DNA from: an uncultured Acidobacteriaceae bacterium
GTDB taxonomy: Bacteria > Acidobacteriota > Terriglobia > Terriglobales > Acidobacteriaceae
DNA length: 64,000 nt
Reading direction: 5' to 3'
Assembly: GCA_963807075.1 (NCBI GenBank)
Contig: CAWEAO010000018.1
Span: forward strand, 273,555-337,554
Of the stretch, positions 8,461-35,200 are shown piece by piece (the first letter of the stretch is position 1; every line of letters starts with the position of its first letter). The notes beneath the pieces were generated by a model that saw only the letters and a program-made list of their open reading frames with translations, ran no database searches and had not been told where the DNA came from. A program made the position numbers and the translations under genes.

Positions 8461-10843
8461 TTAGAGGCCGGCGCCGGGGATGTAGTGGTACTCGATTTTG
8501 GCGGGTTGCTTGACGGGATCGCCGGTCAGGTCATGAGTGTGCCAGACTACGGATTCGCTGGCGACTTCGGGATGCTTGCGCAGGAATTCGAGGGCGTATG
8601 TGCTGGCGGTTGGGTCGTCTTTCTGGTCGGCGAATTTGGCTGACTCGATGGCGGCCTTTTGTTTTTCGCCGAGGCGGCGGTAAAGAATTGCAAGCTGGTA
8701 GTGCGCGGCTAGAGTCGTCGGGATCGATGGCCTGGAGTTTCTCGTATTCGGCGCGAGCGGCGGGATAGTCGTGCGCCTGGTAGTAGGAGAAGCCGAGTTC
8801 GCGGAGGCCATCTTTGGCCAGCGGATATTTGGCGAGCATGGCCTGAAGATCGGTGATGGCTTCCTGGATCTGGCCGGCGTTGCGTTCGACGATGGCGCGA
8901 TAGTAGAGAGCGCGGGGATCGCCGGGCAGAAGGGAGAGAGCCTTGGCGAGATGAGGCTTGGCGTCGTTGTAACGCTCCCATGAGATTTCTACTACTGCCA
9001 TGTTGGTGTAGGCGTCGGCGTAGTCGGGGCGCAGGGCGGCGACGCGTTCGAAAGCGTGGACGGAGGCTTCGTACTGGAAGGCATCGAGGAGAGCGATGCC
9101 GTAGTTGTTCCAGCGCATCCACTCTGGATTGGGCTGCGCGGCCGGCGAGCGTTCTTGAGATTCCATCGAGGCGGGGACGTTGTCGCCGATTTTCAGAGTA
9201 CGGGTGTCTGATGCAACTTCAAGCACGGGCTGGGAGAAGTGCTTACCGGTGGGCTGGTCCATTGCGTAGTCAATGAAGTGCTGATCGAAGCGGCGGTATC
9301 TCACGGTCGCGGTGATCGTGACGGCGCCTGAGATGACTTTGGGCAGGCGGAAACGATAGCGGACTAACTGCGAGCGGCCGGACTGGATGGTGTTGTTGTA
9401 GGCCTGTACGCGGTTGTGCCAGATCTCGTGGAGCCCATTGAGCTCGCCCTTGACGTTGATGAGCCGGTTGGTGAAGGAGTGCGCGGACGGATCGAGGTTG
9501 CCGTCTGGTTGGATGAAGCCCGACTCGGTGAGGACTTTGCCCGTGGCGTTTTTAACAGTGAAGTCGACCCAGGACTCGTAGAAGTCTCGCTGCTCCGGCA
9601 CGTAGGAGTGGCCTATGCCTTTGTTCTGAATGACAACGTCGGCGATGAGGGTTTCGCCCGGGGAGAGCGAGAAGCTGGTCAGGCCCAGGGGTGCGATCTG
9701 GGTGGTGCTGGCTGCGTCGTCGTTTGAGGATGCGGATTCTTTTTCGAGGGCGAAGATATCGACGTTGAGGACGCCTTTGCCGTCAATGCCCCCTTTAAGA
9801 AAGTCGACGAGTTTCTGAGACTGCTCGTCGAACTTGTAATAGGCGGGGTTGAGACTGTTGCCGCCAAGCCAGCGATGCGATACGAGGGTGCCGTCCTTGG
9901 CACCGGCGTCTTGCGCGTTGGCGGCGAGAGGCTGGCGCGGCATGTGGCAGGTCTGGCAGGTGGAGACGGTGTCTTTGCGGTAGAAGGGAAGGGGCGACTG
10001 TTTGGTGAAGCTGGCACCCTGCCACTCGTCGTAGACGGTGAAGGCGCGCTGGAACTTGTAGTCATCGAGCGAGCGGGTGATGGCGGCCTTGTGGCAGGCG
10101 GCGCAGAACTCGGCGGTCTTGTAGAGCGGGCGCATCACGGCCTGCTTGTGACGATCGAGATGGCTGAGGATTTCGGAGTCGGAAACAGGTCGCGTGACGG
10201 GCGCGCCTTTATCGTCGACCAGCACGGCGGGGATTCCCATGACGTAACTGCCGGTGCCGGTGGTGTCAGTGGACTGGATGGCGTGGCAGACGGAACATGT
10301 GATGCCTTCGTCCTCGAAGGGGCGCTTCTTAGGCATGCCCTGGGAGAGGTCGCCGGAGAAGAGCGCGATGGGGTTATGACAGCCTTCGCAGTGGCGGGAG
10401 AACTGCACTCCCTTTTCGGCGATGAGCATGTTGACGTTCTTCAGATACCAGGGCTGCCGAAAGCTGTTGGAGTGAACGGACTGGCGCCACTGGTGGTAGG
10501 CCTCCTGATGGCAGTGGCCGCAGTATTCGGCGTTGAGTACGTTGCGCGGATTGAGGAATTGGCCGTTGGCGGTCATGGCGTTTGAGGGGAGGAAGGGGGA
10601 TTCCTTGCCGAAGGCGTAGTTGTAGCGGAGGGCGACGGAGTCGTGGAATTGCGTGGTGGGCCCGGTCACGTGGATGTCAGCGGTGTAGGCGGCGGGAGGC
10701 AGATCGGGCACAGAGGGCGGGGGAGCCGGAACAGGATTAGAGGATGCGGGATCGGTGGCTGCGCGGCCAACAAAAGTGCCCGTAAGGGGCAGGGCGAAGA
10801 GTAGTGCACATAATGCCCAGCGACGCGGCGAGAATTTGAACAT
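8461..10843 (-). pseudogene. Pentaheme cytochrome c (c554-like) fused to C-terminal TPR domain; one-base frameshift at about 8713
   Basis: Signal peptide; CGHCH, CEGCH, CSVCH, CAACH, CQTCH; TPR region WNNYGIALL...AYTNMAV...; frame 8531-10882 breaks after AIDPDD and continues as LAAHYQLAILYRRLG in frame 8461-8811. Could be an intact gene with a sequencing error. Confidence 0.8.
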
Positions 10844-11002
10844 CTCGGAACGGACTCCCGGAATCAACGGCTTGAACTCCACGCAGGCAACGAGAGGAAG
10901 CTGCGAGGGACAGTTGAAACGTATCAGGGATGGGGGTTGGGATGTCTACCACCGAAAGGTGGAGTGCTGGTGACAGACAGCGGAGAAACCATCGCTGGCC
11001 AA

Positions 11003-11148
11003 AAGCAGGTCCTTCACTTCGCCTACCGCGCGGACAGTTTCTGTCTATGGGCACCGGGCATTGTTCAGATGACACCTGTTGTTTGTGCTGGTGTTCGTGC
11101 TTTCCCACCCATGTCGCGATGAAACTGCGTCGTGGATGGGGCACCGGG
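11003..11148. repeat. REP-like palindrome cluster
   Basis: AAGCAGGTCCTTCACTTCG at about 11003; 11061-11145 matches 8260-8344 at 79 of 85 nt. Confidence 0.85.
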
Positions 11149-11352
11149 CTTTCTAGGGATGCGATCGAAAGGCAAGAGTCATGGGAAGATCCGTTGTGGT
11201 TGAAGTCTGGGCATCACAGTTGCAGCGAGCGGTTCACAGAGTGGGATGAACGGGCGGAAATCGGGCTTGGATGGGGTGATGGGGCGCACATCCACTTAGC
11301 CAAATCGGGGCTGAAACTGTTACGGTTAATGAGTAAGATCACATAGTCCTAG

Positions 11353-11724
11353 ATGGCCTCCAGTCCTTATTTCTCTCTCGCAGTTTTGTTTGTAGCCGCG
11401 CTCGGGTTCGGGCTGGCTCCGCTGGGGCTTGCCTGGCTGTGGCAGAGAGTGTTTTCGCCCGCGAAACCAAATGTGATCAAGAATGCGATTTACGAGTGCG
11501 GGCTGGAATCGAGGGGCGATGCGTGGGTGCAATTCCGCTCGGCCTACTATCTTTACGCGATCATGTTTCTGATTTTTGATGTGGAAGCTGTGTTTTTGCT
11601 GCCCTTTGCGGTGGCGTTTACGGGATTGGGCGTGGCGGCGTGTTTGTCAATGATGGTGTTTGTGCTGCTGCTGATTGAGGGATTGGCCTGGGCCTGGGCC
11701 AAGGGTGTGTTGACGTGGGCGTGA
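11353..11724 (+). CDS. nuoA: NADH-quinone oxidoreductase subunit A
   Basis: YECG, YYLYAIMFLIFDVEAVFLLP, EGLAWAWAKGVLTW. Confidence 0.95.
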   Translation: MASSPYFSLAVLFVAALGFGLAPLGLAWLWQRVFSPAKPNVIKNAIYECGLESRGDAWVQFRSAYYLYAIMFLIFDVEAVFLLPFAVAFTGLGVAACLSMMVFVLLLIEGLAWAWAKGVLTWA

Positions 11725-11744
11725 GGCCGCTTTGCGGCCAGCTT

Positions 11745-11906
11745 CGAGCTACTAGCTTCTAGCGGCTAGCTCTTTCGTGCTGGTACGTGGTTTGCAGTGA
11801 AGCTAAAGATGCCAGATGTCGGACAGGTTGGTTTGGAATTCACCGGAAGCGGTGCTGGCGACTTGATCGGCACTTTCGGAGCTAGAGGCTAGAAGCTAGC
11901 AGCTCG
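11745..11906. repeat. Heptamer-based (TAGCTTC-like) inverted-repeat element between nuoA and nuoB
   Basis: Arms 11745-11772 and 11879-11906 are complementary at 25 of 28 nt, enclosing 106 nt. Confidence 0.8.
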
Positions 11907-11930
11907 TGGCTTGTTGGAGCGGAGCGATTC

Positions 11931-12545
11931 ATGGCGGTCGATGAAAAGCTGAAGATCGAACTCGGTAAGCAGGGCATCGTGGTCACGACTATCCAGGAGC
12001 TCTACAACTGGGGACGGCGGAGTTCGGTCTGGCCGATGCAGTTCGGACTGGCGTGCTGCGCGATCGAGATGATTGCGACGACAATGGCTCGCTATGACAT
12101 GGCGCGATTCGGTTCGGAGGTTTTCAGACCGTCGCCACGGCAGGCGGACCTGATGATTATCTCGGGGACGGTTACGAAGAAGATGGCGCCGCAGGTTGTC
12201 AGGCTCTATAACCAGATGGCCGAGCCGCGGTATGTGATCGCAATGGGGGCGTGCGCGATTTCGGGTGGGCCGTTCAAACAGGGGTACAACGTGCTGAAGG
12301 GGATCGATCGCTATATTCCGGTGGACGTGCACATTCCGGGGTGCCCGCCGAGGCCGGAGGCTCTGATCCAGGCGTTGATGACGTTGCAGAAGAAGATTGA
12401 CGAACAGCCTCTGACGGGTGAGGGGAGACCGCGGCATCTGGATGCAGAGGCGCAAGGGGAATTTCCTGTGCCGGAGTTCGGTGAGCACGATCTGGAACCC
12501 GCGTCGAACAAAGGCGTGTGGACGGTGCCGACGATTATTAAGTAG
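11931..12545 (+). CDS. nuoB: NADH-quinone oxidoreductase subunit B
   Basis: [46 protein letters not shown]. Confidence 0.97.
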
Positions 12546-12600
12546 CAGGGAACTGGGAACAGGACAGGGGAACTAGGGACTGAGGGCATTCGGAACGGGA

Positions 12601-13290
12601 GTGGTGTTGAAGACGGTTGAGGAAATCAAGGCGGCGATTGAAGCGGCGGTTTCGGGAGCTTCGGTGAAGATTATTCCGAATCCGAGCCCGAGCGCGCAAC
12701 AGTCTCTGCTGATCGACGCCCAGCATGCGACGGCGGTCGCCGCGTTTCTTCGTGATGACGAGGAACTGGCATTTGATTTCCTTTCGAATGTGACCGGAGT
12801 GGACTGGCTGGACAAGGAGATCGCCGAGAAAGTTAAAGTAACGCGGCAGGTCGCAAAGCCAGTGGAAGGCGGAGAGCCGGGCCAGGTCCTGATGGTGGAT
12901 GAGACGGTTGAAGAGACCCGGAAGCATGTGCAGCCGGGATATCTGGAAGCCGTATATCACCTCTTTTCGGTTGCGAAGAAGCATGGGCCCGTCGTGCTGA
13001 GGATGCGGACGGCGAATCGGACGGACAAGGCAGAGCTTCCATCGCTGACGCCGGTGTGGCGCTCGGCGGAGTTTCAGGAGCGCGAGGTTTTCGATCTGTT
13101 CGGGATTGTGTTTACGGGACATCCGGACCTGCGGCGAATTTTGATGTGGGATGAGTTCAAGGATTTTCCGATGCGCCGGGATTATGTGGAGCCGGATGAT
13201 TTCGAGTACGAGCCAACTCCGCATGATGAGGTGCTGAAACGCGCGCAGGCACACAAGGCGCAGGTTGCGGCTGAGGAGGTGAAGGAATGA
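12601..13290 (+). CDS. nuoC: NADH-quinone oxidoreductase subunit C
   Basis: [52 protein letters not shown]. Confidence 0.95.
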
Positions 13291-14489
13291 ACTCCTCTTC
13301 GACTCCTCTCGACAACGTGACGGTGCGACTGGCGCGATCGGAAAAGCTTGATGGGTGGAACCGGCCGCCGGTGATTGAGACAGATGGCGAGGGCGAGTTG
13401 CTGGAACTTGCCATGGGACCGCATCATCCTTCGACGCATGGTGTCTTCAGGATGGACCTGGCGCTGGATGGCGAACGCGTCGTCAGATTGAAGCCGGTCT
13501 TTGGATATCTCCATCGCAATCACGAAAAACTGGGCGAAGGCCAGAGCTACCTGGCGTCGATGCCGTACACGGACCGGCTGGACTACATCTGCTCGCTGAC
13601 GAATAACTGGGCATATGCCCTGGCGGTGGAGAAGCTGGTGGGGCAGGAAGTTCCGGAGCGCGCGGAGTATCTGCGGGTAATCCTTGCAGAGTTAACTCGC
13701 GTTCAGAATCATGCTTCGACGATTGGGTTTCTGCTGCAGGAGATGGGCGCCAGCGGCACTCCGCTGATGTATGCGTTTCGCGAGCGCGAACTGATCCTGG
13801 ATTTGTTTGAGAGCCTGACCGGCTCGCGCATGATGTGCAACTACATGCGCTTTGGCGGATGCAGAGTAGATGCTTCCGAAGCCTGGCTGAACGGGGCGCG
13901 CAAGGTAGTGGCGGCGTTGCCTCAGTTCATCGACGAATTTGAAAACTTTCTGATGTCGAATGAGATCCTGATGGCGCGTTGCCAGGGAGTGGGAGTGCTG
14001 AAGCCGGAGTTGGCCGTGAATGCCGGGATCAGCGGACCGATGCTGCGCGCATCGGGCGTGAACTACGACATTCGCAAGGTAGACCACTACGGAATCTATG
14101 ACCGCTTCAAGTTCCGCGTGCCGCTGGGCGATCATGGCGACATTTTCGACCGCTATATGATTCGCATGCTGGAGATGCGTGAATCCGTGTTGATTCTGGA
14201 GCAGGCCCTGAAGGAGTTGCCGGGTGGACCGGTCATGGATCCTAAAGCGAAGATCAGGAATTTCAGACCGAAAGCGGGCGAAGCGTACGGACGGATTGAA
14301 GCGCCGAAGGGCGAGTTGGGATTTTATTTGATCAGCGATGGAAGTCCGAATCCATATCGTTATCGTGTGCGGCCGCCTAGCTTGATCAACCTGACGGTAC
14401 TGGAAGATATGTGCCTGGGGAGCAACGTGGCAGATGTGGTGTTGATTTTCGGAAGTGTGGATATTGTGCTTGGAGAAGTGGATCGGTGA
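13287..14489 (+). CDS. nuoD: NADH-quinone oxidoreductase subunit D
   Basis: [49 protein letters not shown]; no NiFe CxxC pairs. Confidence 0.96.
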
Positions 14490-14501
14490 GCAGAAATCGA
14501 A

Positions 14502-14622
14502 AGCTACTAGCTTCTAGCTCCTAGCTTCCAGCTTGTTCTTGCGACTATGAAAGGCATCGACTGTTGTTGGTTATTCTTTGGGCACAGAAAAGCTAGAGGC
14601 TAGAAGCTAACAGCTAATAGCT
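14502..14622. repeat. Heptamer-based inverted-repeat element between nuoD and nuoI
   Basis: Left arm AGCTACTAGCTTCTAGCTCCTAGCTTCCAGCT (14502-14533), right arm AGCTAGAGGCTAGAAGCTAACAGCTAATAGCT (14591-14622). Confidence 0.8.
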
Positions 14623-14639
14623 GGTTTCAGGAGTTGCAA

Positions 14640-15317
14640 TTGCTCGGTGAAGGAATTCTGAAGGGACTGGCGGAGACGGCGCGAAATTTTGCCGGGAGCT
14701 TTGTCTCGAAAGAACGGATGACGACGGTGGAGTATCCGGAGGAGCGGCTGCCTTTGCCGGAGGCTTCGCGGAATTTTCCATTTCTGGTGTACGACGCCAG
14801 GAATCCGGATCCTGACGACTGGGAGAAGGGCCTGAGATGCGTGGCCTGCCAGATCTGCGAAAAGGAATGTCCGCCGAAGTGTATCTATATAGAGAAGAGC
14901 AAGGACAAGAAGCCGGATTACGTAGGCAAACCACAGATTTATCCGGCGAAGTTCGATATCGATATTTCGGTGTGCATGAGCTGCCAGATATGTGTTGAGG
15001 TCTGTCCGTTTGAAGCGATCAAGATGAATACGGAGTTTGAACTGGCGACGGACGACCGGTTTGGCGGGCTGTTGCTGGACCGGCACCAGTTGGCGCGATC
15101 GAACGAGTACTACCACGAGATTCATCCGACGGAGGCCGCGGAGGTGGATGCGCGGCTGGCCGGGGAGAAGGCCAAGGCGGAGGCGAAGGCCAAAGCTGCT
15201 GCAGTTGCGGCTGCGGCAAAGGCTGCTGCGGCACCGACGAACGCTCCGCCGGCGACTGGATCTGCGCCTGCCATGAAACCGCTCGCGAAGCCGACTGAAG
15301 GAGAGCCGAAAGCATGA
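14640..15317 (+). CDS. nuoI: NADH-quinone oxidoreductase subunit I (2x[4Fe-4S])
   Basis: TVEYPEER, CVACQICEKECPPKC, CMSCQICVEVCPFEAI; TTG 14640 is properly spaced from CAGGAG (ORF track gives 14634). Confidence 0.93.
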   Translation: MLGEGILKGLAETARNFAGSFVSKERMTTVEYPEERLPLPEASRNFPFLVYDARNPDPDDWEKGLRCVACQICEKECPPKCIYIEKSKDKKPDYVGKPQIYPAKFDIDISVCMSCQICVEVCPFEAIKMNTEFELATDDRFGGLLLDRHQLARSNEYYHEIHPTEAAEVDARLAGEKAKAEAKAKAAAVAAAAKAAAAPTNAPPATGSAPAMKPLAKPTEGEPKA

Positions 15318-16489
15318 TCGACAGGCTCGACCAGATTTTTGTTTTGTTGAAGCACTGGATCGTTGGCTATCTGCCGGCTGGTTTGCAGACACCGGTCGGC
15401 GTGATCCTGAGCGTGGTTTGCATTATTGGTTTGTATCCGGCGCTGTTTGCGTTGACGACGGTGCTGGAGCGCAAGGGCGTGGGGCGAATCCAGAATCGGC
15501 TGGGACCGAATCGTGTGGGTCCCTTCGGAATTTTGCAGCCCATGGCTGACGGCATCAAGTCGCTGACCAAAGAGGACATTGTTCCAACGAGCGCGGATGC
15601 GGTGGTGCATTTTCTTGCGCCGGTGATTTTGGTTGTGACGGTGTTCATGGGATTCGCGGTAATGCCCATGGGACGCAACATGGTGCTGGTGGATATGGAT
15701 GCCGGCCTGTTGTTTTATTTCGCCATGGGCGCGTCGTCGGAGCTTTCGGTTTTTATGGCGGGGTGGGGCAGCCGCAACAAGTATTCACTGCTGGGTGCGA
15801 TGCGCGCTGTGGCGCAGATGATCAGCTACGAAGTAGCACTCCTGCTTTCGAGCGTGGTGATCGTGATGATGACCGGGTCGCTCTCGCTGGTGAAGATTGT
15901 GGAGGCACAGAATCACTACAGCTATGGACTGCCGCACTGGTTCATCTTTACGCCGTGGGGCTTCGCAGGGTTTTTGATGTACGCGATTGCGGGGACGGCA
16001 GAGACAAACCGCTCGCCTTTTGATTTGCCGGAGGGCGAGTCGGAACTGGTGGCGGGGTATCACACGGAATATTCGGGATTCAAGTTTGCGCTGTTCTTCC
16101 TTGGGGAGTATGTGGCGATGTTCTCGATCTCGGGATTGGGATCGACTCTGTTCCTGGGTGGATGGACGGCGCCGCTGGCGGCGCTGCAATGGGTTCCGTC
16201 GTGGATCTGGTTTTTCGGGAAGTTGTTTGTGTCGATGTGCGTGTTTATCTGGTTGCGCGGCACGCTGCCGAGGCTCAGGCAGGACCAGCTTATGAACTTT
16301 GCGTGGAAGTTTGTGCTTCCGATGTGCCTTCTGAATTTGTTTGTGGCTGGGCTTTGGCGGTTTCTGGGCGAAGGGTTGCTGCGCTGGATCGTTTGTTCGG
16401 GGATCCTGATTTTGGCGTATGCGGTAATGGGCAGTGCGGAGATGCGGAGAAAACACTTCGGGCCGAGGACGTATCGGTATGCGGAGTAA
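15314..16489 (+). CDS. nuoH: NADH-quinone oxidoreductase subunit H
   Basis: ERKGVGRIQNRLGPNRVGPFGILQPMADGIKSLTKE, KYSLLGAMRAVAQMISYE, AETNRSPFDLPEGESELVAGY, RGTLPRLRQDQLM. Confidence 0.96.
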   Translation: MIDRLDQIFVLLKHWIVGYLPAGLQTPVGVILSVVCIIGLYPALFALTTVLERKGVGRIQNRLGPNRVGPFGILQPMADGIKSLTKEDIVPTSADAVVHFLAPVILVVTVFMGFAVMPMGRNMVLVDMDAGLLFYFAMGASSELSVFMAGWGSRNKYSLLGAMRAVAQMISYEVALLLSSVVIVMMTGSLSLVKIVEAQNHYSYGLPHWFIFTPWGFAGFLMYAIAGTAETNRSPFDLPEGESELVAGYHTEYSGFKFALFFLGEYVAMFSISGLGSTLFLGGWTAPLAALQWVPSWIWFFGKLFVSMCVFIWLRGTLPRLRQDQLMNFAWKFVLPMCLLNLFVAGLWRFLGEGLLRWIVCSGILILAYAVMGSAEMRRKHFGPRTYRYAE

Positions 16490-16502
16490 GGGTGGAATGG
16501 GG

Positions 16503-16716
16503 TTCGTGCTTTCCCACCCATGCGCGGAAAAGCCTGCGCATGGATGGGGCGCCCACATCCTTCCAGGTTTCAGACGCGAGACCCTTCGGCTTCGCTCAGG
16601 GCAGGCTCTGGGGCACCCGGATTATTGGAATGTGGTAGTGGTGAGATTGTGACGCGGTGGGCTTTGTTGCTTTCCCACCCATGACGCGATGAAAACGCGT
16701 CATGGATGGGGCACCC
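16503..16716. repeat. REP-like palindrome cluster inside the nuo operon (nuoH-nuoJ)
   Basis: Two TTTCCCACCCATG..CATGGATGGGGC copies (16503-16554, 16668-16716) flanking CCCTTCGGCTTCGCTCAGGGCAGG. Confidence 0.85.
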
Positions 16717-16738
16717 AGCGGGAAAGGGGCGGCTGGCG

Positions 16739-17239
16739 GTGGGAATTGTTTTCTATCTGATATCGGCGCTGACCGTGGCCGGCGCGCTGGCAGCCGTGCT
16801 GCTGAAGAACCTGGTACATTGCGCCCTGGCGCTGACAATAGCGTTTCTGGGACTGGCGTTGCTGTTCCTGCGGCTTGATGCGCAGTTTGCGGGTTTCGCG
16901 CAGATTCTGGTTTACGTCGGGGCGGTGGCGATCCTGGTTGTATTTGCGATTTTGCTGACGCGCGGGTCCGAACTGCCGAAGGATGGCGTGTTCTCGAAGA
17001 CGTGGGTCGTTGGGTTGGCGATTGCGGCTGCCCTGTTTGCCGTGCTGGGTTGGGCAGTGCTGCAGGCCGGGCCGTGGCTTCCGAATGAAACTGCGGCGCC
17101 GCAGGTGACGGTGAACCAGATCGGGCAGGCGTTGATGGGGCGGTATGTGTTGCCACTGGAGATTGTTGCGGTGCTGCTGACGGCGGCGCTGCTGGGCGCG
17201 GTGATTGTGGCCATGCACGAGAAAGAAGGGACGAAGTGA
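16739..17239 (+). CDS. nuoJ: NADH-quinone oxidoreductase subunit J
   Basis: KNLVHCALAL, DAQFAGFAQILVYVGAVAILVVFAILL, YVLPLEIVAVLLTAALLGA; GTG 16739 after GAAAGGGG. The ORF-track ATG at 16706 lies inside a REP copy. Confidence 0.93.
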   Translation: MGIVFYLISALTVAGALAAVLLKNLVHCALALTIAFLGLALLFLRLDAQFAGFAQILVYVGAVAILVVFAILLTRGSELPKDGVFSKTWVVGLAIAAALFAVLGWAVLQAGPWLPNETAAPQVTVNQIGQALMGRYVLPLEIVAVLLTAALLGAVIVAMHEKEGTK

Positions 17240-17553
17240 TGGCGACGCCGCTGACGGGATATTTGCTGGTGGCTGCACTGATCTTCGCGATCGGGTTGGC
17301 GGGCGCTTTGACGCGGCGGAACGCGATCCTGGTGCTGATCGGGATAGAACTGATGCTGAACGCGGCGAATCTGAATTTGATTGCGTTCTGGCGGTATGGA
17401 CCGCATCCCGAGGCGCTGACGGGAATGATGTTTGCGATTTTTTCGATTGCGGTGGCGGCGGCAGAGGCCGCGGTGGGATTGGGGTTAGTGATTTCGATCT
17501 ATCGCCACGCGAAGACGACGGACCTGGACCAAATGAACAGGATGAAGGGGTGA
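17236..17553 (+). CDS. nuoK: NADH-quinone oxidoreductase subunit K
   Basis: RRNAILVLIGIELMLNAANLNL, AVAAAEAAVGLGLVISIYR. Confidence 0.96.
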   Translation: MMATPLTGYLLVAALIFAIGLAGALTRRNAILVLIGIELMLNAANLNLIAFWRYGPHPEALTGMMFAIFSIAVAAAEAAVGLGLVISIYRHAKTTDLDQMNRMKG

Positions 17554-17557
17554 GCCG

Positions 17558-19633
17558 GTGATGCAAGAAGGATTGGCGTTCACTCCTCAACTGGGGACGA
17601 GCGGAATTGCGCAGTGGCTGTGGCTGGTGCCGGTGTTACCAGTCCTGGCTGCGGGCGTGATTGCAATTCTGAAACAGCCGATGCGGAAGCTCGCGTCGGG
17701 ACTGGCGATCGGGTCGCTTGGGATTTCGTTGTTGTTAGCGCTGTTTGCATTCGGGCATGTGCTGAGCGGATGGTCGCACGGATATGCCGTGCGCGAGGTG
17801 GTGAACTTCTCGTGGATTCAGGTAGGTGAGGCACCGGTTGACCTGGGGTGGGTGCTTGATCCGCTGGCGGCGGTGATGCTGGTGATGGTCACGTTTGTCG
17901 GGCTGCTGATCTTTATCTACTCCGTCGGATACATGGAGCACGATGAGAACTACACGCGGTTCTTCTGCTTCCTGAGCTTGTTTGCGGGGGCGATGCTGGG
18001 CGTGGTGATTGCGAACAGCATTTTGCTGCTGTTCATGTGCTGGGAGTTGGTGGGGCTCACGTCATACCTGCTGATCGGGTTCTGGTATCAGAAGCCTTCG
18101 GCGGCAGCGGCGGCGAAGAAGGCATTCCTGACGACACGCGTAGGCGATGTGTTTTTCCTGCTTGGGATTGTGTGGTTATTTGCGCAGACCGGCACTCTGC
18201 TGTTTTACGACCACGGCGCGGGATCGATGGAGCCTCTGGCACTGGGTGGACTGCTGGTGCATCACTCGGCCTGGGGACTGACGGCGGCGGGCGCGATAGG
18301 GCTGCTGATTTTCGCCGGAGCGGCGGGAAAAAGCGGACAGATTCCGCTGCATGTGTGGCTGCCGGATGCGATGGAAGGTCCGACGCCGGTGTCGGCGCTG
18401 ATTCATGCGGCGACGATGGTTGCTGCGGGTGTTTATCTTGTGGCGCGCGTGTATCCGCTGATGAGTGCGGGTATGCCGGCGGGGGGAACAACTACAGCAC
18501 TGACGGTGGTGACGTGGGTTGGTGCGTCTACTGCGGTGTTTGCAGCGCTGATTGCGGTGGCGCAGAACGACATCAAGCGGATTCTGGCTTATTCGACTGT
18601 GTCGCAGCTGGGATACATGATGGCGGGGCTTGGCGTGGGCGGCGTGGCGGTGGGCATGTTCCACCTGATTACGCATGCATTCTTCAAGGCGCTGCTGTTC
18701 ATGGGAGCGGGTTCGGTGATTCACGGCGCGCATGAGGAACAGGACATCCGGAAGATGGGCGGGTTGAGAAAGCCCATGTTTGTCACGTTTGTCACGTACG
18801 GTATCGGCATGCTGGCGCTTTGTGGATTTCCGCTGTTCTTCTCAGGGTTCTGGAGCAAGGACGGGATACTGGAGGCGGCGCAGCACTGGAGCCTGGCGAA
18901 GACTCCGTTTTACATGCTGGTGTTTGGCGCGCTGCTTACGGCGTTCTACATGACGCGGCAGGTGAGCTACGTGTTTTTCGGGACCTGGCGAGGCCATGGG
19001 CATGCGCATGAGAGTCCGCGGGTGATGACGATGCCGCTGGCGATCCTGGCGTTTTTTGCGGTGACTCTGGCCGCAATTGGAACGCCGGCGTGGCCCTGGT
19101 TCAGGGCGTTTCTTAACGGGAATGCGGCACCGTTTGATTTAGCGGGATTCAAGGAGCCGGGGCTCGGGATGCTGATGCTCACGTCGTCTTTGGTGGTGCT
19201 GGTGGGGCTTGGGCTGGGATGGTGGATCTACGGCGCGAAGTCGCCTGCGGCTGAGGAGCCCGATGCGCTGGAGAAGGCCATGCCGCCGGTGTGGGCGGTG
19301 CTGCGCGACAAGTTCTATATTGACGAACTTTACGGCGCGACGGTAATTGCGTTTTATGAGTGGTGGGCGAAGGTTGCCGATTGGCTGGATCGGAACGTGT
19401 GGGGCGGGATTGTGGCGGGAGTGGCGCTGGTGTTCCGCGGATGGGCGCAGTTGAATCGGTTCCTGGACACGAACGTGGTTGACGGCGGCTTTGACAAGGG
19501 CTGCGAAGAGATCGCGACAGGCGGCGGATTGCTGGCGCGGGTACAGAACGGACGCGGGCAGATGTATCTGCGACTTCTGGCGCTAGCGGTGGTGGTGCTG
19601 GCCGCCATCCTGATCTGGAGCGGCCGCTCATGA
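17558..19633 (+). CDS. nuoL: NADH-quinone oxidoreductase subunit L with extended lateral helix
   Basis: WELVGLTSYLLIGFW, GKSGQIPLHVWLPDAMEGPTPVSALIHAATMV, DIKRILAYSTVSQLGYM, HAFFKALLF, FWSKD, KFYIDELY. Confidence 0.96.
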   Translation: MMQEGLAFTPQLGTSGIAQWLWLVPVLPVLAAGVIAILKQPMRKLASGLAIGSLGISLLLALFAFGHVLSGWSHGYAVREVVNFSWIQVGEAPVDLGWVLDPLAAVMLVMVTFVGLLIFIYSVGYMEHDENYTRFFCFLSLFAGAMLGVVIANSILLLFMCWELVGLTSYLLIGFWYQKPSAAAAAKKAFLTTRVGDVFFLLGIVWLFAQTGTLLFYDHGAGSMEPLALGGLLVHHSAWGLTAAGAIGLLIFAGAAGKSGQIPLHVWLPDAMEGPTPVSALIHAATMVAAGVYLVARVYPLMSAGMPAGGTTTALTVVTWVGASTAVFAALIAVAQNDIKRILAYSTVSQLGYMMAGLGVGGVAVGMFHLITHAFFKALLFMGAGSVIHGAHEEQDIRKMGGLRKPMFVTFVTYGIGMLALCGFPLFFSGFWSKDGILEAAQHWSLAKTPFYMLVFGALLTAFYMTRQVSYVFFGTWRGHGHAHESPRVMTMPLAILAFFAVTLAAIGTPAWPWFRAFLNGNAAPFDLAGFKEPGLGMLMLTSSLVVLVGLGLGWWIYGAKSPAAEEPDALEKAMPPVWAVLRDKFYIDELYGATVIAFYEWWAKVADWLDRNVWGGIVAGVALVFRGWAQLNRFLDTNVVDGGFDKGCEEIATGGGLLARVQNGRGQMYLRLLALAVVVLAAILIWSGRS

Positions 19634-21183
19634 ACGCAATGATGAACGGAATTCCGTGGCTCACGATTATTACGGTGCTGCCGGTTGTCGGCGCGGCGAT
19701 TGCGCTGTTGTCGGGCAAGCATGCGCGGGGCGTTGCACAAGTAACAGGCATCATCGCTTTCGTGCTTTCCCTTGCGATCTGGTTGCACTTGCCGGGGGAT
19801 GGGTCTATCGGCATGGAGGAATTGCATCGCAACTGGGTGCCTTCGCTGGGAATTCAGTATCACCTGGGCGTCGATGGGCTGGGAGCGCTGATGCTGTTGT
19901 TGTCGGCGCTGGTGACGCTGATGAGTATCGATGCGGCGCATCGCGTGCATCACGAACCGGGGTTGTTTTTTGCGCTGGTGCTGCTGCTTGAGGCAGGGCT
20001 GTTCGGGTCGTTCACGGCATTGAATTTCTTCCATTGGTTTTTGTTCTGGGAACTGAGCCTGATTCCGGCATTCTTCCTGATCAAACTTTGGGGCGGACCA
20101 AAGCGTGGGCCGGCGGCTACGCAATTCTTTGTGTACACGATGGCGGGGAGCGTGGCGCTGCTGCTGGCGTTTCTCGCGGTTTTCCTGTCAACGGGATCGA
20201 TGGAGTTTGGCGACTTGGCGGCAATGGCTGCGAACGGATCGCTGGCGCAGCAGGTGACTGCACACCTGGGATCGGGAATTGCCGGAGGCCACGTGATGAT
20301 GTGGCTTGCCATTGGGGTGTTGGCGGGATTTGCGGTAAAGGTGCCGATGGCGCCGTTCCACACGTGGCTGCCAGCGGCATATGCTGAGGCGCCGTCGCCG
20401 GTGACGATGCTGCTGACGGGCGCGATGTCGAAGATGGGCGTGTACGGTTTGCTGCGGATTGCGCTGCCGCTGTTTGGAGCGCAGATCGCAGAGATCAGAA
20501 CGCCGCTGCTGGTGCTGGCGGTGATCACGGTGGTGATGGGCGCGTGGGCTGCGGCGGCACAGAAGGATTTGAAGCGCGTACTGGCGTACTCGTCGGTGAA
20601 TCACCTCGGGTATTGCTTGCTGGGGATTTTTGCAATCGCGGTTCCGGGCGGCGCAAATGTTGCGGTGGGAACGAGCCAGGCGGCGGCGCTGAATGGCGTG
20701 ATTCTGCAAATGTTCAATCACGGGCTGACGGCTGCGGCACTGTTCTGGTTCATCGCGATGATTCAGTTCAGGAGCGGTGGACTGCGCGGGATTGACGACT
20801 TTGGCGGATTGCGGAAGCCTGCACCGGTGTTTGCGGGGCTGATGGGGATTGCGCTGTTTTCGTCCCTGGGACTGCCGGGGCTGAACGGATTTGTGGGTGA
20901 GTTTTTGATCTTCCGCGGTGTGTTTCCGTTGTCGTGGTTAGCGGCGACATTTTCAGTTTTGGGGTTGCTGGTGACGGCGGTCGTGATTCTGACGGTGATC
21001 CAGAAGGTGTTCACCGGGCCGGTGCCTGCGCAATGGGCGGAGTTTCCGGATCTGCATGGCGGGGAGCGGTCTGGGATGGCGCCGGTGATTGGATTGATGT
21101 TCTTGCTCGGGGTGGTACCGCAGCTGATCGTGGGACGTGTGAATCCTACGGTTGAGTATCTGCTGGCGCATTGGAGATTTTGA
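19630..21183 (+). CDS. nuoM: NADH-quinone oxidoreductase subunit M (first copy)
   Basis: GVDGL, FWELSLIPAFFLIKLWGG, KVPMAPFHTWLPAAYAEAP, SKMGVYG, KRVLAYSSVNHLG, GLPGLNGFVGEF. Confidence 0.93.
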   Translation: MNAMMNGIPWLTIITVLPVVGAAIALLSGKHARGVAQVTGIIAFVLSLAIWLHLPGDGSIGMEELHRNWVPSLGIQYHLGVDGLGALMLLLSALVTLMSIDAAHRVHHEPGLFFALVLLLEAGLFGSFTALNFFHWFLFWELSLIPAFFLIKLWGGPKRGPAATQFFVYTMAGSVALLLAFLAVFLSTGSMEFGDLAAMAANGSLAQQVTAHLGSGIAGGHVMMWLAIGVLAGFAVKVPMAPFHTWLPAAYAEAPSPVTMLLTGAMSKMGVYGLLRIALPLFGAQIAEIRTPLLVLAVITVVMGAWAAAAQKDLKRVLAYSSVNHLGYCLLGIFAIAVPGGANVAVGTSQAAALNGVILQMFNHGLTAAALFWFIAMIQFRSGGLRGIDDFGGLRKPAPVFAGLMGIALFSSLGLPGLNGFVGEFLIFRGVFPLSWLAATFSVLGLLVTAVVILTVIQKVFTGPVPAQWAEFPDLHGGERSGMAPVIGLMFLLGVVPQLIVGRVNPTVEYLLAHWRF

Positions 21184-21246
21184 TGGTGGTTGGCGGCTTT
21201 AGTACGAGATTTTCGGCACGATTCAAGTCGTGTCCGGATGCTAAGC

Positions 21247-21366
21247 AAAAGCAGGTCCTTCGCTCCGCTTACCCCAACTTTGTTGGGGCCCCAAGCTGCT
21301 CCGCTCAGGATGACGCGAAAATTAATAAGGCGAAGATGACATGGCTAAGGCCGTGTCCTTTCAAAG
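21247..21366. repeat. REP-like palindrome between the two nuoM genes
   Basis: AAGCAGGTCCTTCGCTCCGC...GCTCCGCTCAGGATGAC and GGCTAAGGCCGTGTCCTTTCAAA; related to motifs at 8393, 11003 and 16580. Confidence 0.65.
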
Positions 21367-21389
21367 CCGCGATTTTTAGGATTAGCTAA

Positions 21390-22899
21390 ATGTTGGCTTG
21401 GACGATTTACATCTCGTTTGCCGGTGCGCTGGTGCTGGCGCTACTGCCGAAGAATAATGCGGTGCTGGCGCGATGGTTTGCGCTTGCAGTGGCAGTGACG
21501 GGATTTGCGATTGGCGTTGCCGGGTTTATGCAGGGCGCGGGCCAGGGACGCGTGACGATTGTCGATGTGCCGTGGGTGGCATCGATGGGCATCCACTTCA
21601 CTCTGGCTGCGGACGGGATCAGCCGCGTGCTGGTGTTGCTGACAGGATTGGCCGCGGTGGCGGGCGTGCTCTTCAGTTGGAACATTGATGTGCGGACGAA
21701 TGAGTTTTTCGCTTTCTTTCTCGCGCTCATCGGCGGCGTCTACGGAGTGTTTCTCAGCTTCGATCTTTTCCTGCTGTTTGTGTTTTACGAGATTGCCATC
21801 GTGCCGAAGTACTTCCTGATCGCGATCTGGGGATCGACGCGGCGCGAGTATGCGGCGATGAAACTGGCGTTGTATTCGTTTGTCGGATCGGCGATGGTGC
21901 TGATTGGATTGCTGGCCGCGTATGCGATTTCCGGTAGCCACTCGACGGGGCTGGTGGCGCTCGCGAATGCAAATCTTCCGGTAAGTTTTCAGATGTGGGC
22001 GTTTCCGCTGGTATTTGTCGGATTCGGAATACTGGCGGGCTTGTGGCCTTTTCACACATGGGCGCCAACCGGCCACGTGGCTGCGCCGACGGCAGCTTCG
22101 ATGTTGCTGGCCGGCGTGGTGATGAAGCTGGGCGCTTACGGGTGCCTTGCGTGTGGCGATTGGATTGTTTCCGCACGGGATGGATCCGTGGGGATGGTCG
22201 TTTGCGGGGATCGGATCGTGGCGCGATGTGTTCGCCATCCTCGCGGTCATCGGAATTGTGTACGGGGCGCTGGTGGCGTTAGCCCAGACCGATTTCAAAT
22301 TTGTGATTGGCTACTCGAGCGTAAGCCACATGGGGTTTGTGCTGCTGGGCCTGGTGACGCTGAAGCAGATTGGTGTGACGGGCGCGGTGCTGCAGATGTT
22401 TTCGCACGGTGTGATTGCGGGACTGCTGTTCGCGATTGTGGGGCGGATTGTTTATGAGCGCACGCATACGCGACAACTGGCGGAGCTGGAGACGATGCAC
22501 CTGGGCAAGCGGATGCCGTTTGCGGCGTGGGCGTTTGTGATTGCAGGCATGGCGTCGATGGGGCTGCCGGGATTCTCAGGATTTGTGGCGGAACTGCAGG
22601 TGCTGGTTGGTTCGTGGATTGCGAAGCCGTGGTGGACGGCGGCGGCGGGCGTCGGAATCGTTATCGGCGTGGCGTATACGTGGCGCGCGCTGCAGAAGGC
22701 GTTCTTCTCTGACAGACTACCGACAGCAGAAGAGCATCCGGCGTCGGGGTGGGAGAAGTTTGAAGCAATTACATGGCCCGAGATTGCAGGTACGTCCTTG
22801 TTGGTGGCGGCGACTCTGATTGTTGGTGTGTATCCGAAGATTTTGCTCGATTCGATTGAGCCGGCAGTGAAGGCGCTGCTTGCGGGAGGGATGCAATGA
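21390..22899 (+). pseudogene. nuoM: NADH-quinone oxidoreductase subunit M (second copy); one-base frameshift at about 22147
   Basis: ADGIS, FYEIAIVPKYFLIAIWG, HTWAPTGHVAAP, KLGAYGCL in 21390-22457, continuing as RVAIGLF...YSSVSHMG...MFSHG...GLPGFSGFVAE in 22147-22899. Removing one T of TGCCTTGCGT fuses them. Confidence 0.88.
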
Positions 22900-24446
22900 A
22901 CTACGCAGACCTTTTCCGCGTGACGCTGCCGGAGACGGCGCTGGATATTGCGGCGCTGCTGGTGCTGGTAGTGGACCTTGGATTTTTGCGCAAAGCGGCG
23001 GCGCAGACGCGCGTGATGGCGGCGGTGTTGCTGGGTGCGATCGGCTGCGGCGCAGCTTTGGCCGTCATGCCGTTTCAGGCGTCTGGTGGATTGACGTATC
23101 CCGACAGTGCGGACTTGTTGCTGGCGACGGGTGGCTATACGGCGATCGCCCAGGTTGGCATCTTGGCGTTGACGGTGTTGACGCTGTTTCTGCTGATTGG
23201 ATCGGATTTTACGCAGCATGTGGGCGAGTACGTTGCCGTAGTCCTGACGGCGGCGACGGGCGGATTGCTGATATCGGCGGCGCAGGACCTGCTGGTGATC
23301 TTTGTCGGCCTGGAACTGCTGAGCCTGGGGTTGTATATCCTGACGGCATTTGCGAAGAAGTCCGGGAAGAGCGCCGAGGCAGCGATGAAATATTACCTCT
23401 TCGGCGGAATGTCGGCTGCGTTTCTGCTGTTTGGTTTCAGCTATCTGTACGGACTCACGGGATCGACAAATCTGCACCGTATGTTACTGGGACTTTATGG
23501 GCCACATGCACTTGAGGCCTCGCCGCTGTTGTATGTGGCGCTGGTGATGATTGCGGCGGGGCTGGGATTCAAAGTGGCGGCGGTGCCGTTTCACTTGTGG
23601 GCGCCGGATACCTATGAGGGCGCGCCTGCGCCGGCCGCGGCGTTTATCGCTTCGGTGTCAAAGGTGGCTAGCTTTGCGCTGCTCATTGGAATCAGCACAG
23701 CGGCATGGCACGTATTCGATGGAATGCGCGGCGGCCATGTTTCATTGGTAGTTGGACGCTATACGCAACAGGTGCAGGTTTATCACGACTTTCGGATGGC
23801 TTGGTCGCAGGTTTTGATCGTGCTGGCGGTGGCGTCGATGGTGCTGGGAAACCTGGCGGCGCTGGCGCAGTCGAGCGTTCGACGGTTGCTTGCATATTCG
23901 GCGATTGCTCATGCCGGCTACATCCTGCTGGGGCTGGCGTTCTTCTCGTATTCGTCGCAGAGTGCGCAGGCGATTTTGTATTACATCCTGACGTATGGGT
24001 TGACGACGATTGGGGCCTTTGGTGCGGTTGCGGTGGTGGAGCGCGCCGGTGGCAGCGATCGCATGGATGCGTTTCTCGGCCTCGCGAAGCGCAATGGGTT
24101 GCTGGCGGTGGTGATGATGGTACTGTTTCTGTCGCTGGCTGGGATTCCTCCTCTGGTGGGATTCTGGGCGAAGTTCAATTTGTTCGCCGCAGTGCTGAGG
24201 GTGTATCCGACGGGACTTGGCATTGGACTGGTAGCGCTGGCGGTGGCGATGAGCGCGGTGTCGCTCTACTACTATCTGCAGGTGCTGAAGCGCGTGTTTG
24301 TGATGCCTGCGGCGAATTTGTTACCGATCAAGGCGAATCACATTACGATGGGCGTGCTGGCGCTGATTGCACTGGCGGTGGTGGTGCTGGGATGCCTGCC
24401 CGGGTTGCTGCAGACGTGGATGGCCAGGTTCTACGCGGGGATGTAA
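22896..24446 (+). CDS. nuoN: NADH-quinone oxidoreductase subunit N
   Basis: GLELLSLGLYIL, EAAMKYYLFG, FKVAAVPFHLWAPDTYEGAP, RRLLAYSAIAHAGY, SLAGIPPLVGFWAK, YYYL. Confidence 0.95.
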   Translation: MNYADLFRVTLPETALDIAALLVLVVDLGFLRKAAAQTRVMAAVLLGAIGCGAALAVMPFQASGGLTYPDSADLLLATGGYTAIAQVGILALTVLTLFLLIGSDFTQHVGEYVAVVLTAATGGLLISAAQDLLVIFVGLELLSLGLYILTAFAKKSGKSAEAAMKYYLFGGMSAAFLLFGFSYLYGLTGSTNLHRMLLGLYGPHALEASPLLYVALVMIAAGLGFKVAAVPFHLWAPDTYEGAPAPAAAFIASVSKVASFALLIGISTAAWHVFDGMRGGHVSLVVGRYTQQVQVYHDFRMAWSQVLIVLAVASMVLGNLAALAQSSVRRLLAYSAIAHAGYILLGLAFFSYSSQSAQAILYYILTYGLTTIGAFGAVAVVERAGGSDRMDAFLGLAKRNGLLAVVMMVLFLSLAGIPPLVGFWAKFNLFAAVLRVYPTGLGIGLVALAVAMSAVSLYYYLQVLKRVFVMPAANLLPIKANHITMGVLALIALAVVVLGCLPGLLQTWMARFYAGM

Positions 24447-32208: not shown

Positions 32209-35200
32209 TTACATGAGTGTCAGCGTAACGGTAGTGGCGTGATTGACCCCATTCGCCGAGTGGGCGTTGACGGTGACATTGACTATCGTCGATTGGGCGG
32301 ATGTCGTCTGACTTGAGTTCAGGGCCGTATGTCCGCCGCATCCGATGGCTCCGGCGCCGAGAATCACGATTGCCAGGAACAGCGCCGACGCGGAGAGCAG
32401 CTTGAGGAGCCTTCTGCGCTGCTTCGAAGAAATCCAAAACAGAAGAGGAAAGAGCGCCAGGGCGAATGGCGCACGTGAGCGAATCTCGTTACCCGAACCT
32501 GCGGCAAGCGGAGCAGTGTGTATCGTCATCTGCACCACCGAGGTGCCGTCAGGCTGCTTTGCCGGTGTGCCGAAGGAGCAGGTCGAGCCGGCCGAGAGTC
32601 CAGAGCAGTCAAGTGAAGGAATTTGGTCGAAGCCGTTCTTCGGTGTAATCAGGAGGGCAACGTCGACGCTCTGGCCGGGAGAAGCAGAGATGCTCGATGG
32701 GGTGGCTTTGACCTCGAAGTCAGGGCCCATGATGTTAACGGTGACTGCGTTCGAGCTTGATCCGCCGAAAGAACTGTCGCCTGCGTAGCTGGCTGTGATG
32801 GCGTCGTTGCCCGGCGGTAAGGCTGCGGTTGTGAGGTAAGCCTTTCCACTCGCGAGGACGGCAGTACCGATTTTGCTTTTTCCAATGAGGAAGTCCACGT
32901 TGCCCGTTGGAATTGCCGAACCAGAAATTGCCGCAACGGTTGCTGTCAAGCAGATCGTAAAGCCCTGGTCAGCTTGCGGAGTCGAGGAGGCAAGAGCAGT
33001 GCTGGTGACGAGCGCGCCCGGAGAGGGAACTGGATTGGGCGCAGCAACCAAAGGGTTAACGGTGATAGCGACGGAGTTCGAATTGGACGGATTGAAGAGT
33101 GAGGCGCCGGCGTAGGTGGCGGTAATGGAATCCAAGCCGGCCGGAAGCGATGATGTGGTGAGCGTCGCAGTCCCTGCGGTCAGCATCACTGTGCCGATAT
33201 TGGCTGAGCCGTTAAAGAAAGTGATGGAGCCAGTTGGAGTTGCATTGCCGCTGGCCTGCTTTACCGCGGCCGTCAGGGTAACCGCCGAATTCTGAGTGAT
33301 GCCTGTCGATGAGGTCGTCAGCATTGTCGATGTTTTGACGGCGACAGCGTTGACGGTGACGGCGACGATAGCGGAGGTGGACCTGTTGAAGGTAGAGGTA
33401 CCGGCGTAAGACGCAGTAAGTGAGTTGGCGCCCGCGGGGAGAGATGCAATCGTGATCGTTGCGGAACCGGCTGAGAGCTGCGCCGATCCGATCACTGCGG
33501 AGCCGCTGAAGAAAGTGACCGAGCCGGTGGGCGCGATGGTGCCGCTGGCTTGCTTGACGATGGCCGTCAGTGTCAACGGCGAGTTCTGGGTGATGCTGAT
33601 TGCGGATGGGGTAAGTGCTGTGACCGTGTTAACGGCGGTAGGAGCAGCAAGACTAACAGTGACAGACACGATGTTAGAGCTGGAAGCCTTGAAGGAGACA
33701 GCGCCGGAGTAAGCGGCAGTGACCGAGTCGGTTCCAACGGGGAGTGCCGATGTAGAGATGCTTGCGATTCCGGAAGAGAGCGTCGCGGATCCGAGTGAGA
33801 CTGTGCCGCTGTAGAACGTCACGGTGCCCGTCGGGAGAGCAGCGCCACTGGCTGGCTTCACTGTCGCCGAGAGGGTGACAGACGCATTCTGCGTGAGGGC
33901 AGACGAGGACGACGCCAATGTCGTAGTGGTGCTGACTGCGGCAGAATTCACGGTGATAGGAATGACATTGGAAGTGGATGCAAGAAAATTTGTCGTTCCT
34001 GCGTAAATGGCGGTGACAGAGTCGGTTCCAACAGGGAGTGCAGATGTAGAGATGCTTGCGATTCCAGAAGAGAGCGTCGCCGATCCGAGGGGGGTCGCGC
34101 CGCTGTAGAAGGTGACCGAGCCCGTGGGAGCACCGGTTCCGCTTGCTGGCTTCACTGCTGCAGAAAGAGTGACGGGCGTGCCTTGCGTGATCGTCGAGGC
34201 GGAAGAGGAGAGTGAAGCACTCGTCCCGATGACGGCCGGGATTGGCAGTGACCGTCAGATTGAAGGTAGCAGAATGCACGCGATCGCCACTGATGGCCCA
34301 TAAAGTGACCGGCACAGTTTGCGCAGTGGATGTGGACGATGCCGTGAGTGTCAGGGTGGAGTAGCCGTTGGTCAGGCTCTGGTTGCTGAAGGATGCCGTT
34401 ACGCCCGTGGGCAATCCGGAGACACTGAGATTCACTGCGCCAAAGTTGAAGGAGTTTACACGAACGTTTGCAGTCGCAAGACCGGATGTCATGGTGTAGG
34501 AGCCGCTGTCAACACTGACATTGAGGTCGGGGTAAGCTGCGGAGGGCGGTGCGCAGGATGATGCTGGCGACGCACTTGGTTCTGCCCATGTGGAGTTGTA
34601 ATCGGCTCCGGTGGCAGTCTGCCAGCCGGCGAGGTCAACGTTTTTGCCATTGGCAATGCGGAATGCGTTCGGCGTGCCGGGGTCGTACCAAGTATTGAAG
34701 CTGGATTTCACCGTGCTGGTGAAGTCGGTCCAGTCCGTTCCGCTGACGTACGTGCCGAAGACATACTGCCCGGGAAGCGCATCGATAAACTCGTTGCCGG
34801 ACATCGTGGTTCCCGTTGTGACAAGGTTGTAGACTTGGCCCGTCTGCCAGTTAGTGGTGCTGATGCCACCTGCGGTTCCGGCAAGATAGAACTGTGCCTG
34901 GTATTTGTTGGTTGCGCCGTTGTTGTAGAAGACGTTGTTGTCGACAGTCAGTTCCTGAGTGTTGAGGACATTTACGCCGACTCCGCTGGAGCAAAGGTGG
35001 CTGTTCTCAAGAGTGACGGGGCCTTCGTTGCGCTCGAGCTGAAGCGCGGCGTTGTAACTTCCGACAAGCGTGGCGTTGTTGATGGTGATGTTCTGGTTGT
35101 CGGTATCGAACCAGAGGCCCTGTGCCTGATTGTTATAGGAGAGGTGCCCCTGGACAGAGGTGGTTCGCATCTGGAAGAACTTCGCGCCGCCTGATGCCCA

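Follow-up and report, generated by a model that had tools for sequence, protein, structure and literature searches.

A probable headless complex I operon with two NuoM subunits in an uncultured Acidobacteriaceae bacterium

We analysed a stretch of 64,000 nucleotides (hereafter the window) from an uncultured Acidobacteriaceae bacterium and found, at 11353-24446 on the plus strand, twelve nuo genes in a row in the order A-B-C-D-I-H-J-K-L-M1-M2-N, which probably form a functional operon for a headless complex I of the 2M type, that is, a quinone-reducing, proton-pumping enzyme with two NuoM subunits and no NuoEFG. Contig C18, which contains the window, belongs to a metagenome-assembled genome of 5.76 Mb in 30 contigs (96.7% complete), the nearest public relatives of which are Terracidiphilus-like Acidobacteriaceae. 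Two papers that cite the original description (PMC6606698, PMC9040806) characterize 2M complex I by a second NuoM and by an insertion of ~26 residues in the C-terminal amphipathic helix of NuoL. The defining marks of this type are present in the window, since both M copies are NuoM by score and by tree and NuoL carries a 26-residue duplication. The genes, identified from the open reading frame (ORF) listing and from Pfam and NCBIfam profiles, with starts that are mechanical ORF starts, are as follows.

11353-11724, plus strand: nuoA (PF00507, E 6e-31)
11931-12545, plus strand: nuoB (PF01058; NF011394, 370 bits, above cut-off)
12601-13290, plus strand: nuoC (PF00329, E 5e-36)
13287-14489, plus strand: nuoD (PF00346, E 2e-89)
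14634-15317, plus strand: nuoI (Fer4 families; NuoI models score below their cut-offs)
15314-16489, plus strand: nuoH (PF00146, E 6e-116; NF004741 above cut-off)
16706-17239, plus strand: nuoJ (PF00499)
17236-17553, plus strand: nuoK (PF00420)
17558-19633, plus strand: nuoL, 691 amino acids (PF00662 and PF00361; NF005141, 628 bits, above cut-off)
19630-21183, plus strand: nuoM1 (TIGR01972, 428 bits)
21390-22899, plus strand: nuoM2, 502 amino acids when read through (halves match TIGR01972 positions 1-256 and 272-484)
22896-24446, plus strand: nuoN (TIGR01770, 337 bits, above cut-off)

Neither the ORF listing nor the profile searches gave nuoE, nuoF, nuoG or any nuoG-like gene between 11353 and 24446. 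We retrieved 80 related Acidobacteriaceae loci; in all 80 the gene order is identical, nuoL and nuoN are separated by two genes of the NuoM type, and M2 is in a single frame. An earlier note, made from the letters of the window alone, had described twelve consecutive nuo genes with nuoI before nuoH, without nuoE/F/G, and with two divergent nuoM paralogs, and the profile matches and the gene listing bear this out, M1 and M2 being ~30% identical. Its description of the genes was correct overall, but it missed the single extra base that splits nuoM2. Its assignment of the cluster to the 2M homologs of the Chadwick type, without an NADH-input module, is likewise upheld by the NuoM scores, the 26-residue duplication and the conservation in all 80 relatives.

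Profile searches placed both M copies firmly in the NuoM family. M1 scored 428 bits and intact orthologs of M2 scored 433-436 bits against the NuoM model TIGR01972, whereas MrpD models gave the M copies only 154-177 bits, and in the trees neither copy fell with NuoL or NuoN. The extra subunit is thus NuoM-like rather than MrpD-, NuoL- or NuoN-like, and we rejected an MrpD identity for either M from the profile scores; grouping of one copy with MrpD or other antiporters, an outcome that the earlier note had left room for, was not found. More generally, the best-scoring models for L, M1, M2 and N were those of NuoL, NuoM and NuoN, and the scores of the Mrp models lay far below. An Mrp antiporter was also rejected, because every gene of the cluster matches a nuo family and there is therefore no other Mrp component. 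A tblastn search of the genome with L, M and N revealed no antiporter-like locus beyond those on contigs C18, C27 and C11.

The second mark of the 2M type is seen in the lateral helix of NuoL, which contains a tandem duplication.

19364-19519, plus strand: two 26-residue lateral-helix modules of NuoL (amino acids 603-628 and 629-654)

Within the tail of NuoL, WAKVADWLDRNV... is followed at a distance of exactly 26 residues by WAQLNRFLDTNV..., and in a comparison of the protein with itself an offset of 26 scored 33, with every other offset scoring 16 or less. We found that the distance between a YxDxxY anchor and a Q/E-x-G anchor was 76 in the window NuoL, in 20 relatives and in the two-M cluster L089, but 51-52 in the one-M headless clusters (Bacteroides L092; L086) and in the canonical NuoL of the same genome, so that the lateral helix of the window protein is ~26 residues longer and, within the sample, the longer helix goes with a second M gene.

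Iron-sulphur, quinone-site or pump residues are retained in several other subunits. In an alignment, NuoB keeps the four cysteine ligands of cluster N2; it also has a one-residue insert in common with Bacteroides NuoB and a C-terminal extension. NuoD keeps the quinone-site motifs HPSTHG and DRLDY and has an internal deletion of ~23 residues that is also present in Bacteroides NuoCD. Both CxxCxxCxxxCP motifs of NuoI, both E-channel glutamates of NuoK, all canonical pump residues of NuoL and the canonical E/K/K/K of NuoN are kept. With regard to NuoI, relatives align across only ~170 of its 227 residues; its tail (window 15140-15317) is a poorly conserved, low-complexity segment of ~50-60 residues rich in Ala, Lys and Pro, which might serve for docking or tethering where electrons enter, or might simply be disordered.

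The two M copies differ at a key residue. Current models assign a Glu/Lys ion pair to every antiporter-like subunit (PMC9271201). In M1, residues E141, K237, K315 and E424 correspond to E144, K234, K265 and E407 of Escherichia coli NuoM. The respective residues of M2 are E134, L215, K303 and E401, the ion-pair lysine of transmembrane helix 7 (TM7) being replaced by Leu215 (codon at 22032), and M2 has an extra lysine, Lys140 (codon at 21807), six residues past the glutamate. The alignment around the missing lysine spans 45 residues with no gap; the TM7 position is Leu in 78 of the 78 relatives whose M2 matches the motif, and Lys in all 43 M1 matches. To place this replacement, we used an intact M2 ortholog in a HMMER search of 1.84 billion representatives and kept the 150 best matches, ~125 of them full-length. 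The TM7 lysine was absent from 36 of these ~125, being replaced by L, I or F, and in a FastTree analysis the 36 formed one clade with support of 100, nested among ordinary NuoM sequences. A 586-residue ORF of Sinorhizobium meliloti pSymA, part of the 'green' complex I, was an outlier of odd composition in the first tree and was left out thereafter. The clade includes M2 and the NuoM of Bacteroides finegoldii (L092), the sole NuoM of the EFG-less clusters L086 (A-B-C-D-H-I-J-K-L-M-N) and L088, and the second M of the two-M clusters L089 and L090; M1 and the first M of L089 together form a deep branch apart from this clade. We found no mention of a missing TM7 lysine in a NuoM clade in the literature searched, which did not cover Chadwick 2018.

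Because M2 shares both its clade and the lost TM7 lysine with the sole NuoM of the eleven-gene clusters, it may be the M native to a lineage of headless complex I, with M1 as an added fourth pump, and M1 would have been added together with the extra helix module of NuoL. Judging from the same similarities, the whole cluster seems to belong to the headless NDH-1 lineage described for Bacteroidota: the cluster contains no NuoEFG, M2 lacks the TM7 lysine, and NuoB and NuoD carry the indels noted above. A further suggestion, that loss of the lysine was a functional redesign rather than a neutral change and that such an M relays charge instead of pumping, is in our opinion unlikely. If true, 2M enzymes would have regained a full pump through the canonical M1, a 2M complex would consist of a relay plus three true pumps, and the pumps of headless one-M complexes would number two. 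The missing ion-pair lysine of the M2 clade is a natural variant for testing models of proton pumping.

M1 and M2 might alternatively be interchangeable subunits, only one of which enters any given complex, as could be imagined from their identity of only ~30% and their difference at the key residue. The two genes are, however, adjacent and co-oriented and abut directly in most relatives, and the sampled two-M clusters all have the long NuoL helix whereas the sampled one-M headless clusters all have the short one, making such an arrangement extremely improbable. The ~200-nt gap between M1 and M2 is seen only in the closest relatives.

As sequenced, nuoM2 is not one open frame; reading starts in frame 0 at 21390, passes to frame +1 at ~22147-22149 and ends at 22899. 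An alignment with nine relatives revealed one extra base at ~22147-22149, where the window has TGCCTTGCG and the relatives have TGCC-TGCG, and the split site is a TT doublet with no long homopolymer. Programmed frameshifting was ruled out because no relative carries the shift. Comparison of the read-through M2 with its nearest relatives gave a ratio of nonsynonymous to synonymous substitution rates (dN/dS) of 0.044-0.048 at a dS of ~0.6, as low as those of NuoD, H, L and M1, and no second lesion was present in M2. Thus, M2 is under strong purifying selection. A scan of the whole genome with a home-made codon-usage method gave 172 loose and 44 strict candidates for frame jumps without a stop among ~4800 coding segments. 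All four of the candidates inspected outside the window look like splits of normally single genes. Three, judged by eye, affect an ABC transporter, a ClpC-like AAA+ protein and a TamB-like protein, and the fourth affects an Amidohydro_3 amidohydrolase, the halves of which match positions 10-116 and 118-469 of the Pfam profile. The junctions of these other splits, like the M2 site, have no long homopolymers. The source assembly is prone to indels, and any lone broken gene in it needs caution; the break in nuoM2 is therefore most likely one such assembly indel.

The earlier note had recognized that true inactivation of NuoM2 would refute its reading. A recent one-base insertion in this strain could have inactivated nuoM2, leaving the complex dead or built without M2; the window does show two overlapping frames and one base too many, this base lies at a TT doublet and not in a long homopolymer, and a scan of the metagenome contigs for a 50-nt stretch with or without the extra base gave no match and hence no intact copy from the same strain. 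Against this, the gene is intact in 80 of 80 relatives, dN/dS is ~0.045 with no second lesion, and dozens of like splits, including that of the ClpC-like gene (by eye), occur in the assembly, also without long homopolymers. These observations favour an assembly indel or a very recent event, and we consider true inactivation improbable. Two other sites in the window, both on the minus strand, may also be mentioned: a beta-helix/Big_3_5 surface protein gene is probably split at ~34190-34194, and there is perhaps another frameshift at 8709-8714.

The membrane arm of the enzyme that we propose would contain L, M1, M2 and N as its four antiporter-like subunits, with a NuoL helix, one 26-residue module longer than usual, as their clamp. 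Electrons would enter at NuoI from a soluble carrier of low potential, likeliest ferredoxin or flavodoxin, which would be reduced by the 2-oxoacid:ferredoxin oxidoreductases (OFORs) of the genome. Compared with a three-pump complex, such an enzyme would translocate one additional proton for every two electrons, or would run in reverse at the same cost. Several points weigh against this proposal. M2 is broken as sequenced and, because the TM7 lysine of the modelled ion pair is missing, may not pump like a canonical M. Co-assembly of M1 and M2 and the proton stoichiometry are predictions only. An AlphaFold2 model of NuoL built from 22 sequences has a usable core, but residues 588-691 have predicted local distance difference test (pLDDT) values below 50, so that the helix length could not be measured on it. 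No donor gene linked to the operon was found, and the downstream flank is syntenic in none of the 80 relatives. Finally, a canonical nuoEF-G set elsewhere in the genome, on contig C27, could in principle dock.

With respect to the electron donor, conserved neighbours were rejected as candidates because the downstream flank is syntenic in no relative, and no linked gene suggests a donor, in agreement with the earlier statement that none is encoded in the window. The genome contains four OFOR-type genes, one of which encodes a pyruvate:ferredoxin oxidoreductase of 1238 amino acids, and a ferredoxin hypothesis has been put forward for the 2M complex (PMC6606698, PMC9040806). Reduced ferredoxin or flavodoxin would be the likeliest donor, since the OFORs make a low-potential carrier available and by analogy with other EFG-less complexes.

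The main rival concerning the donor is a four-pump complex I fed by NADH, in which the fused NuoEF and the NuoG of the canonical complex I would serve the cluster as its NADH module. A single canonical operon that includes EF-G is present in the genome, located at C27:145146-158869 and arranged A-C-D-(small ORF)-EF fusion-G-H-I-J-K-L-M-N; it lacks nuoB, and a lone nuoB, 58% identical to that of the window, is found at C11:291081-291662, indicating that subunits are already encoded apart from their operon. However, this lone NuoB supplies the B that is missing from the canonical operon, in NuoB and NuoD the cluster has the same indels as headless complexes, M2 groups in one clade with their NuoM, other two-M and one-M clusters also lack EFG, and Bacteroidota have been reported to lack NuoEFG altogether (PMC6560451). 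We therefore regard sharing of the NADH module as unlikely. The caveat of the earlier note that nuoEFG elsewhere might complete an ordinary complex I thus holds in so far as a fused nuoEF and nuoG exist on C27, but the NuoB, NuoD and M2 of the cluster bear headless marks. Two NuoF-like genes were considered as orphan nuoEFG and rejected. That at C18:188522 sits in a Hox-type NiFe-hydrogenase cluster (by eye from translations), and that at C11:422718 is a GltD-like fusion beside a cluster resembling group-4 hydrogenases (by eye). The Hox-type cluster, a bidirectional NiFe-hydrogenase with HoxE/F/U/Y/H-like genes identified by eye, lies at C18:185734-190632, ~85 kb upstream of the window, and its large-subunit gene is broken across several frames.

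The enzyme might instead run mainly in reverse, with proton influx through the four pumps driving electrons from quinol up to ferredoxin and so providing the cell with low-potential reductant. Such a mode has been proposed for the 2M-type complexes of Nitrospira and Manganitrophus (PMC6606698, PMC9040806), and with an additional pump a smaller proton-motive force suffices for each electron pair. Those organisms, however, are autotrophs that need ferredoxin for the reductive tricarboxylic acid cycle, whereas the present bacterium belongs to the soil Acidobacteriaceae, the OFORs of its genome yield reduced ferredoxin from organic acids, and no ferredoxin-consuming pathway is linked to the operon. 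We give a mainly reverse role only a slight chance, and prefer the quinone-reducing, proton-pumping function.

The operon is preceded by a divergent gene for a multihaem cytochrome/tetratricopeptide repeat protein and followed by a convergent gene for phosphoenolpyruvate carboxykinase. An ORF of 138 codons at 10930-11346, directly before nuoA, was considered as an extra subunit; it has no coding signal and no Pfam or NCBIfam match and is probably not a gene. Unusually long gaps within the operon, ~145-215 nt, are filled by two families of palindromes found genome-wide.

11098-11145, upstream of nuoA: 48-nt palindromic element resembling repetitive extragenic palindromic (REP) sequences, with copies at 16507-16554 and 16668-16715 in the nuoH-nuoJ gap
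11740-11911, nuoA-nuoB gap: CTAG-rich inverted repeat, with a second pair at 14502-14615 in the nuoD-nuoI gap

The core of the 48-nt hairpin, TTTCCCACCCATG, occurs 43 times in the genome against ~0.2 expected, and that of the CTAG-rich repeat, GCTAGAAGCTAG, occurs 62 times against ~0.7 expected; both families are REP-like elements or elements resembling miniature inverted-repeat transposable elements. In addition, the motif AAAAGCAGGTCCTTC[A/G]CT[T/C]CGC... is common to the M1-M2 gap (21184-21389) and the region upstream of nuoA (10883-11352).

The distribution of the operon was assessed through M1 in an evenly drawn sample of 201 Acidobacteriota genomes. Orthologs with at least 59% identity were present in all three other genomes of the same genus and in two of the 12 other genomes of the family, and matches of 38-42% identity occurred in a few other Acidobacteriota families. 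A protein homologue search with M1 returned only close Acidobacteriaceae sequences at least 80% identical. The cultured Occallatibacter savannae has an M1 ortholog that is 82% identical and, for this reason, probably has the whole operon, so that the donor and the stoichiometry could be tested in this cultured carrier. Compact and without NuoG, the acidobacterial form occupies a single operon and is widespread in Terracidiphilus-like soil bacteria; it appears to derive from a headless lineage that also occurs in gut Bacteroidota. The 2M type is relevant to two questions, the number of protons that a respiratory enzyme can pump for each pair of electrons and the way in which low-potential reductant is made or spent by cells living on low-energy substrates.

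The cluster was compared with known enzymes. The canonical 14-subunit complex I, as encoded by E. coli nuo and on C27, shares its core subunits with the window cluster, as well as the conserved iron-sulphur, quinone-site and pump residues of NuoB, NuoD, NuoI, NuoK, NuoL, M1 and NuoN, but it also contains NuoE, F and G, has a single NuoM with a complete Glu/Lys pair, and has a NuoL helix ~24-25 residues shorter than that of the window protein. The rhizobial 'green' complex I (S. meliloti pSymA, L085; PMC9040806) also has four antiporter-like subunits; it has two MrpD-like subunits in place of NuoL and retains nuoE/F, whereas the window cluster keeps a true NuoL and has an extra subunit of the NuoM type. 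The 'green' type was rejected for the window, its NuoL having a Proton_antipo_N domain and scoring above the NuoL equivalog cut-off.

Bacteroidota are reported to have a headless NDH-1 that works without NuoEFG (PMC6560451), and the eleven-subunit form of B. finegoldii (L092) resembles the window cluster in this respect, in the NuoB insert and in the ~23-residue NuoD deletion; its NuoM and the window M2, both without the TM7 lysine, belong to one clade. It differs in having one NuoM, a helix anchor distance of 51 rather than 76, a fused nuoCD and the order H-I, and the window cluster, with twelve genes and two NuoM, departs from the pattern of exactly eleven subunits and one NuoM.

The closest match is 2M complex I, the type of Chadwick, Hemp, Fischer and Orphan 2018 (ISME J 12:2668), as described in PMC6606698, PMC9040806, PMC7117926 and PMC11636273. 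The window cluster is like it in the second NuoM gene between nuoL and nuoN and in the NuoL helix longer by ~26 residues, and is like the Nitrospira 2M clade in lacking nuoE/F. By contrast, the Nitrospira clade 3 clusters are described as keeping an enlarged nuoG (PMC6606698), which the window cluster does not have, and the cultured Chloroflexi encode nuoBCDI apart from the other genes, whereas in the window all genes are in one operon; nuoI before nuoH also sets the window cluster apart from the described 2M clusters. A 2M complex has been reported, and found to be transcribed, in Acidobacterium capsulatum, a member of the same family (PMC11636273). Since the same arrangement has been reported and is expressed there, the system is a real, conserved operon of an already known kind.

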